The position numbers were made by a program, and so were the translations under genes. Below, piece by piece: positions 564 to 44,271 of a stretch of DNA of 44,914 bases. Below the pieces are notes generated by a model, which saw only the letters and a program-made list of their open reading frames with translations, was not told where the DNA came from and did not search any database. The stretch spans positions 1-44,914 of IMG/VR virus record IMGVR_UViG_3300025356_000001. One strand, 5' to 3'. This DNA is from a virus. Lineage: Duplodnaviria; Caudoviricetes. Positions within the stretch are counted from its first letter, which is position 1. Each line of letters opens with the position of its first letter.

Positions 564-1106
564 ATGGCAGAGTATAATCCATTTTCCAGCATCTACTCTC
601 AAACAGATTTTGGGAAGCAAGCATCTTCATATGCCACTACGGAAAATTTTGACATTTCCATGCCAGATGTTTTGAGTAGGGATCTTGGATTGTCTTCAAT
701 GCCTTTCCAATCTGCTGATGCGAGGAATACTGCACAAAAGAGCATGGCTCAAAGTGATTCGATGATGCGTCAGAGGGAAGACCTTCATAGCAAAGATTAT
801 TTTGGACAAGCTCTTGAAGCCATTACTTCTCTGAACAAGAAATTTGGAGTTGATACTGGTAGTGGCATACCTGTACCTGGAGAACGAGGCATCCGTCAGC
901 GCACTAGCGTTACTGGGCTTCCATACTACACCTTTAGGGCAACTCCTTCAGAATACAACACAATTGAAGGGCGCACCTATACTGGATCTCAAATTCCTAA
1001 AGAAACCCTTTCCTTTGGAATCTCTCCAGAGATGAAAGCATCACAAGCCGAGTTGCCCCGATTAAATGTTCCTGCAAAGGGATTGTTTGATACAAACATG
1101 GATTGA
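564..1106 (+). CDS. Hypothetical protein, probably virion-associated
   Basis: 180-aa ORF tightly packed between structural genes (3-nt and 1-nt gaps). Confidence 0.7.
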   Translation: MAEYNPFSSIYSQTDFGKQASSYATTENFDISMPDVLSRDLGLSSMPFQSADARNTAQKSMAQSDSMMRQREDLHSKDYFGQALEAITSLNKKFGVDTGSGIPVPGERGIRQRTSVTGLPYYTFRATPSEYNTIEGRTYTGSQIPKETLSFGISPEMKASQAELPRLNVPAKGLFDTNMD

Positions 1107-1107
1107 T

Positions 1108-2289
1108 ATGGCACAAGAAGATTCCTCTCGCACATTTTCCACAATCGCTCCTAGCAGGATCGCCCATAGCCCGTATGCTTCTTCCTATGCAAATCTTGCA
1201 GAGAACATAGGAGATCAATGGGTTGATTCCAATAAATTGCGGGATGTGATGGCTGTTGCTGGGTTTATTTCCCAGCAAGATCGTGCTGAACGAGAAGCAA
1301 AGCGCAATGCTTTTTATGAAGACCTCCGTAGTAGGGCAGAGCAAAGGGCGCAGGAAAGGGCAGATCGTTATGCCGCCAAGCAAGACTATCGGGAACATTT
1401 GATGGATCAAGCTGATCAGTTGATTGGCAAGATTGAAATGATTGACCCGATGCACGTTGATGCAAACAAGGCATTGCAGGAACTTCGATCATCGCAGAAC
1501 TTTGGTAGGCTCCTTGCCAACAGAGATACCCGTCAGGCCGTATTGGAAGCCTTTAAAAATAAGGCTAAAGAGCATGATGACATTTTAGGTGGGTTTATGC
1601 AGGAAGGGAAAACCAAGTATGGGTTTGCTCCTTCAATGGGTGAGATTCCCCTCAAGGCAGATCGCACCTTTGACACAGAGAAGTTTTATTCCACCACGCT
1701 TCCTTCTCTTGGACAGCAGATGCAACAGAAGGCGCAACAGACATATGAGGCTACAGCGACCCCAGAAGGAAGGGTTAAGTATGCCGAGTATAATGAGTAT
1801 GGTTATCCTGTGGCAAAGTTTGTTGCCGCTCCTAAAATTAAACCTGTAAAACCAGAGGATATAAAAAAGGAATTTAAGACTACATATGGCGCACCAGTAG
1901 AATCTTTGTCCATGCAGTTTGGAACAAAACCCGTTAAGGGAGGAATTTCTGTTATTCGTGGATCATTTGAAGATGGAGAATTTAAACCATCTGAATCTGG
2001 AGATACAGTTCAAGTTGTTGATGCAAGCAAGGGAATGAGTAAAAAAGTTATTCACAATATTCCCTATGAGCAGTTTGAGTCATTCAGATCAAAAGTCCAA
2101 GGGGTGAATGCTCCATCTCAAATAATCTCTACTCCAGAAGGAGTTGATATTTCTTCTCCGATTGGAGTTCAATCTGGGTCTTTTCCTCAATTAAGACAAC
2201 CAACTCTCTTGCCTTCACCAACACCAGAAGCTACAACTGATGCCTCGCCCTCACCCGCGCCTATGCCGTTGGGCGACATCTTTAAGTAG
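1108..2289 (+). CDS. Probable internal virion (ejection-type) protein
   Basis: Start moved to ATG 1108 (TGA-t-ATG coupling); charged helical protein directly upstream of the giant ORF. Confidence 0.65.
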   Translation: MAQEDSSRTFSTIAPSRIAHSPYASSYANLAENIGDQWVDSNKLRDVMAVAGFISQQDRAEREAKRNAFYEDLRSRAEQRAQERADRYAAKQDYREHLMDQADQLIGKIEMIDPMHVDANKALQELRSSQNFGRLLANRDTRQAVLEAFKNKAKEHDDILGGFMQEGKTKYGFAPSMGEIPLKADRTFDTEKFYSTTLPSLGQQMQQKAQQTYEATATPEGRVKYAEYNEYGYPVAKFVAAPKIKPVKPEDIKKEFKTTYGAPVESLSMQFGTKPVKGGISVIRGSFEDGEFKPSESGDTVQVVDASKGMSKKVIHNIPYEQFESFRSKVQGVNAPSQIISTPEGVDISSPIGVQSGSFPQLRQPTLLPSPTPEATTDASPSPAPMPLGDIFK

Positions 2290-2291
2290 CC

Positions 2292-5200
2292 ATGCCTTTT
2301 AATTCAGATTCACTAGCACAAGCTAGAAGCCAAGGATACACAGATGATCAGATTTATGACCACTTGGCTCAATCTGACGAACGATTTCGCGTGGCAAAAC
2401 AAAATGGGTATTCCCTTGATGATGTTGCCGCGCATTTAAGTAAAACAAAAGGAGGTGAACAAAATGAAGATCAAATCAGGAATCAGCCACAAGCCGACCA
2501 AGAAGGCAATGCACGACGAGTACCCGACCAACAAGGCACGGATGGAAACCGCCAAGGGTTACAAGCCGATGTGCAGTTGCGTCCCCAAGACCAAGGCCAG
2601 CGTGAACGCAATGACCAAGCCTATCTAACCAATGAAGGACAAACCAAAGATGCCCAAGGAGGAATCCAAGGGGCGAAAGCAGGGCAAGGCATGGAAGGCC
2701 AAGTCCCTGCGCGGAACCAAGAGGAAGTAGCAACGGGGAGTGTTCAACCCACCCCCGAAGGAAACTTCTTTCAGAGAGCTTATTCTAAAGCTCTGGCAAA
2801 TCCCAAACAAGCCGCTGAAGTGGCTATTGGGTCTGTGGCGCAGGGAGCGATTGAAATGGCGGCTGGCGGAAAGCTGGCGCAACTTGCGGCAGAATACACC
2901 CCTGGCCCTTGGTATGCAAAAACGGCGGCGGGAGTTGGTGCGTTTATTGGAGGGCAAAAGCTGACCGACTATCTCCTCCGAACGGCAGATAAATATCTTT
3001 CTTCTGACGAGCTTAAACGAGCGCAAGCAGATCAACCGGAGCTTGCAGAAATGGGTCAGATATTGGCGATGGCCCCGCAGGGAGTTGAATCACTTGGAAA
3101 TCTTGGCAAGGCATTTTCTGCCACCATGACCAAGGATGGAGCAACTAAAGCCGCCAAGGAGCTTGCTGGCAAGCTGGCTATTGGTGCTGGTGCTGGCGCG
3201 GCAGTTGGTGAAGTGGCAAGCGGATTCAAGCAAGACACAAAAGAAGCCGTTGAGAATGCCATCTTTGGTGCGATTTTATCTGGATACCATGAGGGGAAGA
3301 TTGCAAAAGCAGGGCTACCCGAAACTGCAAAGGTGGCGGCAGAAACAAAGCCAGATGATGTTATTGCCAAGGAGCAAGCTCCTAAATTTGAAGAAGCTCC
3401 CGCCAAGACAATCACGCTAGAGCCTATTGCTCCAGAAATTCCTATTGAAGAAAAACCCGCTGAAGCTCCCACTGAAGCACAACCCCAACCCACATATGCC
3501 CCTGAAGTCAGGAAAATCAAAGAAGGTCGTCAGCCAGAATATCCGCAAGGAGATGAAGGCAGGCAAGCCGCAGAAGCAGGCCGTGGCTATCGCGCTGAAG
3601 AAGGCGGGATTAAGCCGGAAGAAATAGCCGTTCCAGAGGGAGCTAGGGTTGCCGCCGCCGCATACCTAGCTCCTGATGGTAACATTTACGAAGGGCCAGA
3701 TCACCTTGCGGCTATGCAGAAAGCCAAAGATTCTGGAGCAATCACGCAAGCTGAGATTGACCAAAAGGAATTACCAAAGGATCGTAACACGGAGGAGTTT
3801 GGATATTCTGTGACTTTGCCAGATGGAACTCGCACAACAACTACCCGTGAGTTTGGTGGCAAGATTGCCAAGGCATCTGGTCAGGCCAAGGTTGAAGAAT
3901 ATCAATTTGGAGATAAAGCTCATAGCAATGAGATGACCAAAGATGATTTCCCAGAGGAAGCTCCGAAGAAACGAATCGGCCCTGGAGCCGCAGGAATCCG
4001 TGAGTTTGAATTAAGAGACATCCAGCAAGGAGCAGAAATCATCAAGGGATATAAAGACCAGACCAATGAGGTTATGCCCTATGAGGACTGGAAACGAAAT
4101 TTCTCCACAACCATAGAAGAAGGGAAGTATTCAGAAGATCAACTCAAGGAGTTCTATGACCAGTCTGTAAAGGTGTCCGATGAAGCATCTAAAGGGAAAT
4201 CTATTCCAGAAGCAGTTCGCCAGCTTGATTTGCCAATCAAAAAAACAGAATCAAAAACATCCCTTGCAAATGCAAAAATTGATGAAGATAGAGTGAATCG
4301 TGGTCGTCCAAGGTTGATGGATGTTTCCAGAAAGGGCAGAGAGCAAAGCTGGGATAATGCCATGTATAAAATGGATGAAGATCCTACTTATCAATATAGG
4401 CTTATATCGGAATTGTCTAAAAAGCCAAGAGCCGCAAACGACGAAGAACACGCTGTCATTGAACATTATCTGATTACCAAGAAGAATGAGCGTGATCAGA
4501 TTTTGGATAAACTATCTCAAGGAGATCTTTCGCCAGAAGAACAATCTGATTTAAGGCAGAAGTATGTTGATCTTGATGATCAAGTTTATGGCATAGAAGC
4601 ACTTTCAAAAGCCACTGGAACAGAAACAGCAAGAGGACTTGCCTATCGTGCCAACCTTCGTAATAACGATTTTTCTTTGGATTCAATGCGAACCCAAGTG
4701 AGGGCAGCAAAGAATGGCGAGAAACTTACTGAGGAGGATGAATCCAAACTCAAGAACTTGAGTGATGAGATCAAGAAGAATGACGATGAAGTTGATCGCA
4801 TCCAAAAGGAAGACAAGGAAAAGTTCTCTGAAGAGGACACTAAGGATTTTATTGATACTGCAAAAAAAGGAAGCAAGAAGCGAAAAGAAAAGGAATCTCC
4901 TGACGATGCATTGGCTAGATTAAAAACTATTGCAGAGGGAAGGATGGATGATTATCCCAAGCTGGCTTCCACTATCCGAAAGATTGCGATTGCCTTTGTG
5001 GACAAGGGTATCACAGAACGAGAGCCGCTTCTGGATGCCGTTCATGGATTCTTGAAGGATGAGGTTGGTATGCCTGAGTCTTGGACTAGGCAGGAAACAA
5101 GTGATGCAATCTGCCAATACGGAATTTTCCGAACTCTCAATCAAGATGCTACGATGGTAGCATTCAGAAAAATCAATGGTCAGTTATTGGAGCTTGGGAA

Positions 5201-7508
5201 ACGCAAGGACATTCTTGCTCTCCAAGCACCTAAAAAGACTGGCATGGAGAGGGCAAAGCAAGATGTTGAGGCTAGAAACATAGCTAGAGAGAATCGAAAG
5301 CTGATTAAGAAATACAACATTAAGACTGAAGATCCTACTAGTCAGCTTGCAGGGGCATTGGAGGGAGCAAAGAATAAACTCAAGAACGAAATTGAGGATC
5401 TAACGGCTCGCATTAAAAGTGGAGAGCAAGCTCCTTCTCGTGCTGATGCGCCAACGGATGCGGAGATTGCATCTCTTAAAGAGCTTCGTGACTCTCTAAA
5501 AACTCAATTTGAGATTATTTATGGCAAGCCAGAGAAGGCCGCTCCATCATATGAAGAGCAAGTTACGGCAACCGAAAAGGCATACACAAAGCTGATTGAG
5601 AAAAAGAAAGAGCTTCTTGCCAACCAGGGCGTTACTGATCTTACCCCTAAAAAGCCAGAGGTTACTAGTCCAAAGATTGAATCGCAGAAAGCGGAGATTG
5701 AACAACTCAATGCAGAGTTAAAAGCATTGCGTTCTGCTGATGCATCAAGGAATGAGCAACTAAAACTTGATTCAATCAATCGACAGATTGAAGCCAAGAA
5801 GAGGCAGATACAAGATCAAGTTGTTACCAAAAAGGGAGAGAAATATGATGTTGCAAGCCTTGAGCGCACTCAAGCAATCAAAGAGCTGGAGGCATTAAGA
5901 AACCAGATTAAGTCACAAGATTGGTACATAGCCGCTCGTCAGCAAGCCGCTATTGACTCATATGTGGCTAGACAGAATAAGATTGCCAATGAGTATTTGC
6001 GCCGTATTGAGGAAGAGGATTTTGCTCCTCGTCAGAAAACAGAGCGTGTGTTGAACTCTAGAGAGATTGAAGCAAAGGCAAAGGCAGAACAAGCTCGCGC
6101 AAAGTTCCAGAAAGAACTAGCCGCATATAATTACAAGAACCGAACCAAAGAACAGAAGGTGCTAGACTTTGTAGTAAACTTTTCTAGGGCCACAATGCTT
6201 TCTCATATTACTACACTTACAAAGCTAACTGCGGCATCAGTTGAAATTGCGGCATTAAAGCCACTAAAAGCTACTGTTGGTTATGCGTGGAGAGTATTGC
6301 CTCCTGTGAATGAAATTGCAAAACTCTCTCCGCTTGAGGGAGGCGGAAAGCCATCAGAAGATGTAAAGTTGTTTGTAAATGGAATTGTAGAAGGAATTAA
6401 AGATTTCCCTAATGTTGTTAAATCTGGTCAAACCAAGATTGATGCCATGATGAAGGAAAAGACTCGTATTGATAACAGCATTCTTCAATACTTTGGTCAT
6501 CTTCATAAAGCAATGAAAGCTCCTGTTTTTACAGGAGAATTTAAAACATCTTTGGGAAGATATTTGAATTGGATGGAGAAGCAAGGGATGGACATCCATG
6601 ATCCTGTAAATCAAAAGACAGCAATGGATGCGGCATATCAGAGCGCACAGAGGAGCATTTTCTCTGAAGACAACGCTCTTGTTAATTTTATTAACACTCA
6701 AATTTCTATTGGTAAAAAGAGCAATAGCCGAGGGGTAAGATTGGCTTCTTATGCACTACAATTTAACATTCCTATTGTAAAAATCCCAACAAACATTATT
6801 AAACAAGTATTTGAGGCTCAATTTGGAACTGCAATAGCAGGAGCTAAAATTGCAAAGGCAATGGTAAAGGGAATGGATACACTTTCTCCTATGGAGGCAG
6901 ATACAATTATGCGCCAGCTAAAGGTTGGAAGTATTGGTCTTGCTATGGTTGCCTTTGGTGCTATGCGTCCAGATATGTTTGGTGGATTCCATCTTCCTGG
7001 GATAACGCAAGATGATGAAGATGTTCCTGCTGGTGGAGCAAATCTTTTTGGAATAAAAGTTCCTCGTATCGCGTTTGACAATCCACTTCTTATTGCCGCT
7101 CAAGTTGGAGCAACAGCTAGGAAATACTGGGATGCTAAATCTGGAGAATATGGTTACACGGGAGAAGAAGCCGTGGATTTTGGCATGGCAATGCTGGCAT
7201 CTGAATATGCCCTTGTAAAAGAAACTCCATTGCTTTCTCTTCCAAGAAACATAGAGCAGACAATGAATGTTGAGCGTACTCCAGAAAACCTTGGTGGATT
7301 GATTGCAGATCGAATACCTGGCCCAGTTCAAGACATGGCAAAGGCATTTGATACAGAGGAAGATGGAACTCTTCCAACTCTTAAAGCCTTGATTGGAATC
7401 AATAAAGACATTATTAAGAGAAAGCCAGATGGTTCTCCTCCAGAACGATTCTTGCAAACCATTGAAAAGAATCTTCCTTATTTGAGAAAACAAGTACCAG
7501 AAAAATAA
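2292..7508 (+). CDS. Giant internal virion / DNA-ejection-type polyvalent protein (1738 aa)
   Basis: N-terminal duplicated motif ARSQGYTDDQIYDHL / AKQNGYSLDDVAAHL, Ala/Gly-rich hydrophobic segments, long coiled coils; architecture typical of podovirus ejection proteins (inference). Confidence 0.7.
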   Translation: MPFNSDSLAQARSQGYTDDQIYDHLAQSDERFRVAKQNGYSLDDVAAHLSKTKGGEQNEDQIRNQPQADQEGNARRVPDQQGTDGNRQGLQADVQLRPQDQGQRERNDQAYLTNEGQTKDAQGGIQGAKAGQGMEGQVPARNQEEVATGSVQPTPEGNFFQRAYSKALANPKQAAEVAIGSVAQGAIEMAAGGKLAQLAAEYTPGPWYAKTAAGVGAFIGGQKLTDYLLRTADKYLSSDELKRAQADQPELAEMGQILAMAPQGVESLGNLGKAFSATMTKDGATKAAKELAGKLAIGAGAGAAVGEVASGFKQDTKEAVENAIFGAILSGYHEGKIAKAGLPETAKVAAETKPDDVIAKEQAPKFEEAPAKTITLEPIAPEIPIEEKPAEAPTEAQPQPTYAPEVRKIKEGRQPEYPQGDEGRQAAEAGRGYRAEEGGIKPEEIAVPEGARVAAAAYLAPDGNIYEGPDHLAAMQKAKDSGAITQAEIDQKELPKDRNTEEFGYSVTLPDGTRTTTTREFGGKIAKASGQAKVEEYQFGDKAHSNEMTKDDFPEEAPKKRIGPGAAGIREFELRDIQQGAEIIKGYKDQTNEVMPYEDWKRNFSTTIEEGKYSEDQLKEFYDQSVKVSDEASKGKSIPEAVRQLDLPIKKTESKTSLANAKIDEDRVNRGRPRLMDVSRKGREQSWDNAMYKMDEDPTYQYRLISELSKKPRAANDEEHAVIEHYLITKKNERDQILDKLSQGDLSPEEQSDLRQKYVDLDDQVYGIEALSKATGTETARGLAYRANLRNNDFSLDSMRTQVRAAKNGEKLTEEDESKLKNLSDEIKKNDDEVDRIQKEDKEKFSEEDTKDFIDTAKKGSKKRKEKESPDDALARLKTIAEGRMDDYPKLASTIRKIAIAFVDKGITEREPLLDAVHGFLKDEVGMPESWTRQETSDAICQYGIFRTLNQDATMVAFRKINGQLLELGKRKDILALQAPKKTGMERAKQDVEARNIARENRKLIKKYNIKTEDPTSQLAGALEGAKNKLKNEIEDLTARIKSGEQAPSRADAPTDAEIASLKELRDSLKTQFEIIYGKPEKAAPSYEEQVTATEKAYTKLIEKKKELLANQGVTDLTPKKPEVTSPKIESQKAEIEQLNAELKALRSADASRNEQLKLDSINRQIEAKKRQIQDQVVTKKGEKYDVASLERTQAIKELEALRNQIKSQDWYIAARQQAAIDSYVARQNKIANEYLRRIEEEDFAPRQKTERVLNSREIEAKAKAEQARAKFQKELAAYNYKNRTKEQKVLDFVVNFSRATMLSHITTLTKLTAASVEIAALKPLKATVGYAWRVLPPVNEIAKLSPLEGGGKPSEDVKLFVNGIVEGIKDFPNVVKSGQTKIDAMMKEKTRIDNSILQYFGHLHKAMKAPVFTGEFKTSLGRYLNWMEKQGMDIHDPVNQKTAMDAAYQSAQRSIFSEDNALVNFINTQISIGKKSNSRGVRLASYALQFNIPIVKIPTNIIKQVFEAQFGTAIAGAKIAKAMVKGMDTLSPMEADTIMRQLKVGSIGLAMVAFGAMRPDMFGGFHLPGITQDDEDVPAGGANLFGIKVPRIAFDNPLLIAAQVGATARKYWDAKSGEYGYTGEEAVDFGMAMLASEYALVKETPLLSLPRNIEQTMNVERTPENLGGLIADRIPGPVQDMAKAFDTEEDGTLPTLKALIGINKDIIKRKPDGSPPERFLQTIEKNLPYLRKQVPEK
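2464..2628 (+). CDS. Nested +1-frame Lys-rich 54-aa protein MKIKSGISHKPTKKAMHDEYPTNKARMETAKGYKPMCSCVPKTKASVNAMTKPI
   Basis: Near-perfect SD AAAGGAGGTGA at 2448-2458, 5 nt before ATG 2464; open to TAA 2628. Confidence 0.5.
   Translation: MKIKSGISHKPTKKAMHDEYPTNKARMETAKGYKPMCSCVPKTKASVNAMTKPI
2632..2730 (+). CDS. Nested +1-frame 32-aa basic peptide MKDKPKMPKEESKGRKQGKAWKAKSLRGTKRK
   Basis: ATG 3 nt after the stop of the previous nested ORF, same frame; 14 of 32 residues K/R. Confidence 0.45.
   Translation: MKDKPKMPKEESKGRKQGKAWKAKSLRGTKRK
3496..3627 (+). CDS. Nested +1-frame 43-aa basic protein MPLKSGKSKKVVSQNIRKEMKAGKPQKQAVAIALKKAGLSRKK
   Basis: Resembles a small phage protein type I recall as stand-alone genes (MPLKxGxS...NI.xEM.AGKPQKQAVAIAL); A/C-rich leader aaccccaacccacat like other genes here. 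Confidence 0.7.
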   Translation: MPLKSGKSKKVVSQNIRKEMKAGKPQKQAVAIALKKAGLSRKK

Positions 7509-42640: not shown

Positions 42641-42904
42641 TATTGTTTTTATCAATTGCGCTCGGCTGGCTTGGGGCCGCCGCGCTTGATTATATTAAAG
42701 CATCTCTGGCATAAAAAAGAAAAGAAGAATTAGAAAGAAACAACCCCCCTAGTCCCCCCATGCTTGGAGGAAAGAAAGGTCAAGAAGAAAAGGGAATCCC
42801 TTGATCCAGAAGGGGAGGCCGTTTTGTCTGCGGCATCGCCTACTTTATAGGGTCATGTGGTACGCATTCACACCCACCCATCAGTTCTTTGGGAGAACGA
42901 GAAG

Positions 42905-42936
42905 ATATTGCCATATGGGATGATGTGTGTCAAGAT
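42905..42936. promoter_or_regulatory. Overlapping divergent promoters
   Basis: Plus: TTGCCA-N17-CAAGAT-N7-GTG(42944); minus: TTGACA-N17-CAATAT. Confidence 0.5.
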
Positions 42937-42943
42937 CCCTGCC

Positions 42944-43591
42944 GTGAAAATTCTTGATAATGGAATAGCTGTGATTGAAGGGGATACGCATATCTCTAGG
43001 TGGGTGGAGATGGAGGGGAGACTTGACCACGACCAGAACTCATTGCCAATCATCCTTGAGCATATCAAGGAAGGGGATTGGGTGGTGGATGCTGGGGCTT
43101 TTATCGGGGATCATACAAGAGCTTATCTGGATAGGGTGAAAGACTCTGGTCGAGTCTTTGCCTTTGAGCCAAACCCAGAGGCATTTAAGTGCTTGGTGCA
43201 TAACTGCCCAGAAGCTCGCTGTGAGCCTTTTGGGTTGTCTGACCTTGATGGTAGTGCTGGATTGCTTGTTAACCCCAATAGCGGGGCTTCTAGGCTCTAC
43301 GATGGGGATTCTATTGTGGTTGTGAAGCTGGATGATTACGAGTTGCCGCAGTTGAATTTCTTGAAACTAGATGTGGAAGGGTGGGAGCTAAAGGCTTTGA
43401 GGGGAGCGGAATCCATTATTGAAAAGCATCGACCTGTCATGTGGATAGAGATAAACAAGGGAGCCTTGGCTGAACAAGGAGCTGAGCCAAAAGATGTGAT
43501 GAGATTTCTTTTTGATTACGATTATGACTTTAGCCCCTACCCAGAAGAGGGTGGGCCTCAATACGATCTTCTCTGTATACCATGCAAGTAG
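42944..43591 (+). CDS. FkbM-family SAM-dependent methyltransferase
   Basis: VVDAGAFIG.HT, VFAFEPNP, GLSD, LDD...FLKLDVEG.E..AL.GA...I....PV..IE. Confidence 0.92.
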   Translation: MKILDNGIAVIEGDTHISRWVEMEGRLDHDQNSLPIILEHIKEGDWVVDAGAFIGDHTRAYLDRVKDSGRVFAFEPNPEAFKCLVHNCPEARCEPFGLSDLDGSAGLLVNPNSGASRLYDGDSIVVVKLDDYELPQLNFLKLDVEGWELKALRGAESIIEKHRPVMWIEINKGALAEQGAEPKDVMRFLFDYDYDFSPYPEEGGPQYDLLCIPCK

Positions 43592-44271
43592 ACATCTTTA
43601 TCCGTAGCTGGCATGGCGACTTTAATTGGCTTGAGTATTGCTTGAGATCAATCAAGAAGTATGCGAAAGGCTTTCACAAGATTCATGTCTGCATCCCGAT
43701 TCAAGACTATCCATTATTGCCTGATGTGGGTGGGGTGGAAGTGCATCTGGTTGAGCGTTGGGATGACGATTATATTGGGCAACAGAATGACAAGCTCCAT
43801 GCCGATTGGTATTGCAGGAGTCCTTATATCTTGGTGATGGATAGTGATTGCGTGTTCACTCAAGAAGTCAGCCCTGCCGACTTCTTTCGTGAGGGGAATC
43901 CTGTTTGGTTGTATGAATCAGTTCCTCACGACCAGTCTCCTTGGTATCCGATCACGCAAGAGGCTATCAAGTCCATGCCAGAGTTTGAGTTTATGAGGCG
44001 GCATCCTTTTGTGTTTACGAGGCAGTCGCTTCGAGACTTTAGAGACTTCATGTTCAACTGCCATCAAGAAGACATCTCACAATGGCTCAAGAAGCGTCCT
44101 AAAGGCCGTTTTAGCGAGTTTAATGCGTTTGGGGCATGGGCGTATCGGAATTACTACAAACACTTCGCTTGGCTCCATCCTAGCGAGATGGAGACGTATG
44201 TGATGCAGAAGTGGTCATGGGGCGGGTTGTCTGGCGAGATAAAAGAGGAATTGGAAAAGATCCTAGCCTAG
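43582..44271 (+). CDS. Glycosyltransferase-like (GT-A fold) protein
   Basis: VDIFIRS...D..WL.YCLRSI.KY, Y.GQQ..KL.A, ILVMDSDC.F (DxD), FSEFN..G. Confidence 0.75.
   Translation: MQVDIFIRSWHGDFNWLEYCLRSIKKYAKGFHKIHVCIPIQDYPLLPDVGGVEVHLVERWDDDYIGQQNDKLHADWYCRSPYILVMDSDCVFTQEVSPADFFREGNPVWLYESVPHDQSPWYPITQEAIKSMPEFEFMRRHPFVFTRQSLRDFRDFMFNCHQEDISQWLKKRPKGRFSEFNAFGAWAYRNYYKHFAWLHPSEMETYVMQKWSWGGLSGEIKEELEKILA

Follow-up and report, generated by a model that had tools for sequence, protein, structure and literature searches.

Does a 43-codon reading frame inside a 1738-codon virus gene encode a protein in its own right, and did that protein arise where it now lies or reach the site from elsewhere? 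The frame sits in a complete virus record of 44,914 bases from freshwater metagenomes, referred to here as the window. A first-pass annotation had described the frame as a small basic phage protein overprinted within a putative ejection protein. We consider it probable that it is a conserved gene of an old family, lodged in a linker of the giant gene and likely started internally, and that its product is an accessory protein predicted to be packaged in the head, where it likely contacts DNA. The features discussed below are collected in Table 1.

Table 1. Positions of the nested genes, their upstream signals and the host segments in the window
Feature	Position	Strand	Remarks
Host ORF, 1738 aa	2292..7508	+	No family match; candidate giant internal protein of the virion (ejection type)
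Host N-terminal domain (codons 1-49)	2292..2438	+	Control; purifying selection in host frame
Shine-Dalgarno site AAGGAGGTG of ORF A	2449..2457	+	Within host codons K-G-G-E
Nested ORF A, 54 aa	2464..2628	+	+1 frame; conserved in relatives, weaker selection
Nested ORF B, 32 aa	2632..2730	+	+1 frame; starts 3 nt past the ORF A stop
A/C-rich leader without Shine-Dalgarno site	3471..3495	+	Presumed role in initiation
Nested 43-aa basic gene, PHROG 2423 family	3496..3627	+	+1 frame of the giant ORF 2292-7508
Host-frame domain starting R-x-x-A-A-A-Y	3645..3869	+	Follows the slot directly and anchors it on the right; control for the host frame

The nested genes and the frame that holds them

The nested gene translates exactly as first reported, into 43 residues followed by a TAG stop, with 14 lysine or arginine residues against one acidic residue (net charge +13). 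It occupies host codons 402-445 and is a complete ORF within a longer ORF of the same strand, in a different frame. Its basicity, offered earlier as a sign of a gene, is no evidence by itself because the +1 frame of the giant gene outside the three nested genes already contains 20% K/R and 5.6% D/E. The nesting is not an assembly artefact or a chimera, since the stretch recurs, with 0-1 differences, on contigs of three other runs. These are X3 (2955-4200, one difference), X6 (3277-4119, one difference) and X5 (3515-4147, no difference), the last of which begins just within the nested gene. There was no RNA dataset among the listed carriers of the stretch.

The leader is A/C-rich and contains no Shine-Dalgarno match upstream of 3496. 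As the first-pass annotation had noted, A/C-rich leaders are usual in this phage, and of 40 further ORF starts inspected in the window the majority have no Shine-Dalgarno site. The ATG at 3496 is the only one of the giant gene's 80 +1-frame ATGs without a G in the 15 nt upstream. The first part of the leader is common to L147, L157, L163 and L165, where it precedes a different nested gene. A search for sigma-70 promoter-like sites in 2000-4200 found none (1.6 expected). The predicted structure of the peptide is a two-helix hairpin (helices 9-21 and 26-37, pLDDT 88.8) that resembles predicted structures of PHROG 2423 family members (TM 0.8-0.93). Among 48,161 chains the best fold match reached Z 4.4, which is uninformative for a 43-residue hairpin, and a sequence search for solved relatives returned 0/177,635 at E<=10. 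An embedded o-spanin of the Rz1 type was rejected, as the peptide has no cysteine and no hydrophobic signal.

The gene is also nested in the +1 frame of six other distinct giants (L110, L117, L118, L123/L126, L125 and L155). A pattern combining the gene with a downstream host motif gave 16 hits, seven nested and nine non-nested. L110 and L155 were found without this pattern, and L117, L118 and L125 recurred in a scan for ORF B. The closest giant overall, L081, shares about 70% identity across most of its length and has no PHROG 2423 gene. All seven nested copies have 43 codons, from M-P-L-K to the stop. Across these codons pN/pS, which as an uncorrected proportion pooled over related pairs gives the direction and not the exact strength of selection, comes to 0.27 for the +1 frame against 1.47 for the host frame. 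The copies share on average 79% identity in the +1 frame and 51% in the host frame, and the variable columns at +1 codon positions 1, 2 and 3 number 16, 13 and 35 of 43. The window and L155 copies agree at 36/43 residues in the +1 frame and at 18/43 in the host frame, and 22 of their 35 differences fall at +1 third positions. A clade of five nested members shows the same pattern when taken alone. Domains of the host behave as controls: host codons 1-49 (five sequences) have a pN/pS of 0.29 in the host frame against 1.74 in the +1 frame, and the domain adjoining the nested gene has 43, 35 and 61 variable columns of 65 by host codon position. Selection preserves the +1 protein sequence at the nested gene, and the host frame is merely kept free of stops. 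This is the opposite of a conserved host segment beside an unconserved +1 peptide, which had been named beforehand as the outcome that would tell against the gene.

The host frame is open across the nested gene in 7/7 nested loci, and such openness is rare by default. Among the best 80 of 588 viral loci found with the peptide, 18 have an open host-phase frame across the first 38 codons, among them only 1 of the 40 with less than 50% GC. A host-frame stop arises where one codon closes with T and the next opens with AA, AG or GA. A stop-making T occurs at 0/85 risk positions in the nested copies against 128/445 in the 40 low-GC loci, a contrast whose Fisher value of 7e-12 overstates the case because an open frame requires zero and the copies share ancestry. 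Just 5 of the best 80 of 588 loci are open in the remaining same-strand frame, and the phase common to all the nested genes is therefore largely set by the code.

Read in the host frame, the nested segments are low-complexity linkers rich in E, Q, P and G. A protein search with the host segment gave two matches among 60 candidates of similar length. P0122 and P0123, with 71% and 58% host-frame likeness, were not counted, as both are known from proteins only and P0122 has no viral locus. A pattern search gave a single hit, a chance match within a portal gene. The search with the host-frame translation was dominated by a lineage with an overlapping ORF of about 100 aa, described below, and does not amount to a survey of giants.

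The two other nested frames, ORFs A and B, differ in their signals. GGAGGT precedes ORF A in 12/12 family loci examined; it also precedes ORF B in 10/12 family loci and is absent there in the window. Gly-Gly is written GGAGGT in 20/45 cases within the first 200 host codons against 6/91 elsewhere. In 11 loci, pN/pS is 0.66 (+1) against 1.19 (host) for ORF A, and 0.32 against 1.92 for the last 19 codons of ORF B. Among 16 +1-frame ATG ORFs of at least 25 aa, only the three nested genes are stop-free in at least 5 of 22 relatives (9, 22 and 5 of 22). The other 13, conserved in only 0-3 of 22, were rejected. All three nested genes are under selection and recur in the family, which bears out the earlier suggestion that the giant gene systematically hosts small basic proteins in this one frame. 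Neither ORF A nor ORF B turned up as a free-standing gene, and 23/23 hits of the ORF B pattern, which was derived from nested copies, lie in giant-gene context. PHROG gave no match for ORFs A and B of the window and nothing better than E 0.018 for the copies in relatives; Pfam and NCBIfam gave no match for either. Most genes of this phage have no Shine-Dalgarno site, and the strongest one among the 43 starts examined (564-44634) is that of the hidden ORF A.

The host ORF has no match above noise in Pfam, PHROG or NCBIfam. Its N-terminal repeat matches L095 (E 7e-5), a protein that elsewhere along its length matches the "DNA ejection protein" phrog_26400, and the relatives L092 and L102 match the DarB-like phrog_10089 (E 8e-6 and 5e-7). 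In the structural region at 564-7508, three genes in a row increase in size (180, about 393 and 1738 aa), and the host is the last and largest of them, an order comparable to T7 gp14-16. Gene position and the weak matches of relatives hint that the host may be an ejection-type protein. Compared across the window and L081-L168, the giant proteins are mosaics whose N-terminal repeat, middle and C-terminal parts have been exchanged independently. The block of Shine-Dalgarno site, ORF A and ORF B is retained.

The PHROG 2423 family outside the giants

The peptide matches the PHROG 2423 profile with residues 1-43 against positions 1-43 of 52 (E 1e-18, profile search). A protein search returned 1700 of 1714 candidates at E<=0.01, the best 84-86% identical, and 456 of 50,697 phage records match. 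Pfam (E<=0.05) and NCBIfam searches assigned no family. Membership of DUF6496 (PF20106) was rejected on the lack of a Pfam match at E<=0.05; its only trace is a look-alike cluster in the Atlas, ranked 24th, with DUF6496 in 38% of its members. Of the 588 viral loci found with the peptide the best 80 were kept, and none of these lies in a giant gene. Free-standing copies occur in cultured phages as RSB1 gp47, phiCbK D865_gp338, Thalassomonas BA3_0020, GAP52 D858_gp115, Pa193 gp21 and SCUT-S1 ORF22. The earlier statement that this type of peptide occurs as an independent small gene in many phages was correct, and the stand-alone homologs whose lack was to have counted against the gene exist.

The cultured members share with the nested gene a full-length profile match, a similar model and a late-gene context. 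Those inspected are free-standing or N-terminally fused, whereas the nested gene lies wholly out of frame within its host. The domain forms the N-terminus of the head maturation proteases BcepB1A gp26 and AP22 gp28. It is also N-terminal in longer proteins such as an ORF of about 390 aa from L129:5001 onward, and it heads BFVD matches of 532-554 aa that are named Nudix-domain protein or prohead serine protease. Of 138 ORFs neighbouring free-standing copies, 114 were scanned and 24, mostly near-duplicates, were dropped; 78/114 have a PHROG match, and the best match is to head and packaging in about 35/114 (hand count).

Two homologs, both from Pbunaviruses, have been detected in virions. SCUT-S1 ORF22 and Pa193 gp21 both match PHROG 2423 (E 1e-28); the former was tied to the published protein by gene number and size, the latter by coordinates. 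PMC6521218 reports ORF22 in virion ghosts with seven peptides and 77% coverage (Table 1), and the supplement of PMC11456595 lists Pa193 gp21 in virions with a Mascot score of 288. Both homologs are 68 aa long, less basic than the nested peptide and 55% identical to it over 33 aa. The SCUT-S1 particles of PMC6521218 were DNA-emptied ghosts in which ORF22 remained with the shell, and because of this retention capsid binding fits ORF22 at least as well as DNA binding does.

Free-standing copies often lie in runs of further minute, lysine-rich ORFs, of which several types recur. Such ORFs are found near the match in 28 of the best 80 of 588 loci, a few of them being upstream starts of the same gene. 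Loci with runs are L008, L015, L016, L019, L026, L035, L038, L039, L048-L050, L052, L061-L063, L069 and L071.

A swappable slot in the giant genes

A second family of small basic genes also nests in the giants. Its members are 41-48-aa proteins with the motif Q-V-x-Y-L-L-S, without a PHROG match and often with a GTG start when nested; they show no evident likeness to the PHROG 2423 gene. Nested copies are found at L091:7706-7837 and in L147, L157, L163-L165, L140, L144, L166-L168 and L184, and free-standing ones in L171-L183 and L185-L191 (20/26 loci of one search). In eight nested loci, pN/pS is 0.19 in the +1 frame against 2.44 in the host frame.

L147 and L157 have the left leader and right flank of the window, yet hold the second family inside, with a GTG start, and ORFs A and B of L147 are 81% and 97% identical to those of the window. 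Some relatives join the flanks directly: in L161 the anchors are 35 codons apart, whereas the window has 112 codons there. We call the site a swappable slot; its occupants have been exchanged between shared flanks.

After near-identical sequences had been merged (L123 and L126 by hand), 26 family giants were counted. Four distant proteins sharing the N-terminal repeat only were set aside, as were L166 and L167, giants without ORF B in both of which the second family is nested. Seven of the 26 carry the PHROG 2423 gene, ten an intact and three a decayed second-family gene, six neither and none both. The 17 giants retrieved by the ORF B pattern alone divide into four with PHROG 2423, six with an intact and two with a decayed second-family gene, five with neither and none with both. 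Zero overlap among these 17 has a probability of 0.053 under independence, which is no more than suggestive of mutual exclusivity, and any exclusivity may be positional. The second family lies directly ahead of the R-x-x-A-A-A-Y domain in only 5/10 intact cases; it lies about 110-200 codons upstream of this anchor in 4/10, and the anchor was not found in 1/10. The decayed copies (L081 host codons 737-758, L101 544-565 and L102 892-932), two truncated and one with an internal stop, persist as host linker, and nested genes can therefore survive as relics.

Whole-record searches of four complete relatives with the nested gene found exactly one PHROG 2423 copy and no second-family gene in each. 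The window likewise has one PHROG 2423 copy and no second-family gene. Four empty-slot records that are 95-100% complete have no PHROG 2423 gene, so the gene is accessory and dispensable in the family. Three of the four were tested for the second family and have none. Cultured phages gave no match to the first 603 aa of the host or to the second family. It is likely that the giant gene serves as a vehicle for small, interchangeable virion proteins, which gene-calling programs are prone to overlook.

In a tree of 86 short genes, five nested copies form one clade (99/96 support) and the window copy stands apart. A single origin of the nested copies is not rejected by this tree, which does not include L155 (AU p 0.128). 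Over 38 residues the window peptide matches the free-standing L001 at 34 and the five nested copies at 25-29.

Origin, mechanism and rival explanations

The nested gene is an old one that was captured; it did not arise through de novo overprinting. Birth in place was rejected on the contrast between 1700 protein relatives and 456 phage records for the peptide and 2/60 for the host segment. The earlier term "overprinted" thus holds for the nesting and fails for the birth: the nested frame is old and widespread, and the host segment is novel.

We propose that ribosomes would start at 3496 on the late mRNA of the giant protein, aided by the presumably unstructured A/C-rich leader without a Shine-Dalgarno site, as for most genes of this phage. 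The product would be a component of the virion, like the two detected free-standing homologs, and packaging in the head is suggested by these homologs together with the protease fusions. Judged by its charge, size and gene neighbourhood, it may bind DNA or acidic surfaces within the head. Recombination in the shared flanks would be the route by which small basic genes are inserted, swapped and deleted. Insertion would be tolerated because reading a Lys-rich gene one base back yields a spacer rich in E, Q and G, provided that the gene brings no host-frame stops. Insertion or replacement by recombination is indicated by the conservation of host parts on both sides of codon 402 and by the different gene that relatives hold between the same flanks. 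Recombination into a tolerant linker is the most likely explanation for the swaps and the empty slots.

The first-pass annotation favoured a different route, in which stop loss in an upstream gene let its frame run over the small gene and fuse with the gene beyond. We regard such read-through or fusion as unlikely to account for the nesting, although traces of it can be pointed to. In a separate lineage, an ORF of about 100 aa lies in the same phase over almost all of the PHROG 2423 gene (L007:4829-5140, L008, L009, L013, L019, L026, L041, L048, L061 and L076; proteins P0125-P0244), and it is possible that this is a read-through intermediate. The frame one base back is open over the whole gene in 6 of the best 80 of 588 loci. 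The longest such frame, 557 codons in L080:2-1672, runs from upstream sequence through the small gene into downstream sequence, possibly by chance because the locus is GC-rich. In L001 a free-standing copy lies 256 nt past a "DNA transfer protein" ORF, and PMC6139136 proposes stop loss as one route to embedded spanins. The fit is nevertheless poor, as the gene sits at codon 402 of 1738 between conserved flanks that hold a different occupant in relatives. No split host was seen among the family giants examined, and read-through alone explains neither two dissimilar families in the same flanks nor the empty slot of L161 unless exchange followed. It is possible for the first capture, as an ancient fusion across an intervening small gene.

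Among the remaining alternatives, translation with a role in the infected cell and not in the head, through binding of RNA, ribosomes or host DNA, would suit a dispensable gene whose free-standing copies also adjoin lysis genes, terminase genes and tRNA clusters and whose model has no informative fold match. We nevertheless hold this improbable, given two homologs in purified virions (PMC6521218 and PMC11456595) and the fusion of the domain to head proteases. It is very improbable that 3496-3627 is an untranslated relic of a recent insertion surviving as linker DNA: +1 synonymous sites have diverged among the nested copies (pS 0.59), yet protein, start and length are retained, and both the differences from L155 and the five-member clade show the selective pattern given above. 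What speaks for a relic is that the window copy, unlike ORF A, has no Shine-Dalgarno site, that decayed nested genes are found in L081, L101 and L102, and that the peptide is nearer to free-standing L001 than to the five nested copies, as expected of a recent insertion. Least credible of all is a programmed +1 frameshift that would make the peptide the C-terminal tail of a shortened host protein. The 25 codons of open +1 frame upstream in the window and the fusions of the domain elsewhere would allow it, but the open length upstream varies from 3 to 80 codons across the seven copies, similarity begins exactly at the Met as in the free-standing genes, and the fusions examined have the domain at the N-terminus.

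Of the systems described, Rz1 in the +1 frame of a flexible linker of lambda Rz comes nearest. Like Rz1, the captured gene is small and lies in the +1 frame over a tolerant linker of a larger gene. Rz/Rz1, by contrast, is a fixed interacting pair near the host C-terminus, while here there are three genes per host and the occupant of the slot is exchanged; the product also has no lipobox or spanin role. PMC6139136 derives embedded spanins from separated genes and reports no spanin family with both embedded and separated members, whereas PHROG 2423 combines nested, overlapped, fused and free states in one family. Overprinting, as defined in PMC8227390, creates the inner protein anew. The nested gene shares dual coding with it, one disordered frame relieving the constraint, but in overprinting the nested frame is the new and restricted one, and at 3496-3627 the nested frame is widespread and the host reading novel and unconstrained.

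Gene E within gene D of phiX174 is an example of viral overprinting. The T4 internal proteins IPI-IPIII are small, basic, dispensable head-internal proteins that vary between related phages and are encoded by free-standing genes. The nested product is likewise small and basic and its gene dispensable and variable, a likeness by description. A literature search that reached few subscription journals found no paper describing the nested-slot layout.

The locus is a clear case of overlap arising from capture of an existing gene and not from de novo birth; states in which the gene is free, fused or partly overlapped can be compared with others in which it is nested, swapped or decayed. Embedded genes in linkers were already known from spanins, and the swappable slot is the new part. 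Phage annotations can miss conserved genes within the largest ORFs, and certain stretches of low complexity in giant virion proteins exist as a side effect of coding in a second frame. A large family without assigned function (1700 clusters) is tied to the phage head. The giant internal virion genes of these freshwater phages may be expression cassettes, in which tolerant linkers carry +1 start signals, dissimilar families of small basic head proteins are inserted, swapped and lost, and the "acidic linkers" are largely the out-of-frame shadow of DNA-packing peptides made along with the giant protein; we put forward this wider reading tentatively, as something close to an even chance but short of it.

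Some minor observations concern the surroundings of these genes. The ORF of about 100 aa in the overlapped lineage sits between head-morphogenesis and scaffold genes, where gene callers list the long ORF. The upstream part of the L080 frame reads as a putative terminase-like sequence. At 42857-44271, the window encodes a methyltransferase of the FkbM type; the gene after it has weak, sub-threshold matches to DUF6492 and Stealth, and the pair could be involved in glycan modification.
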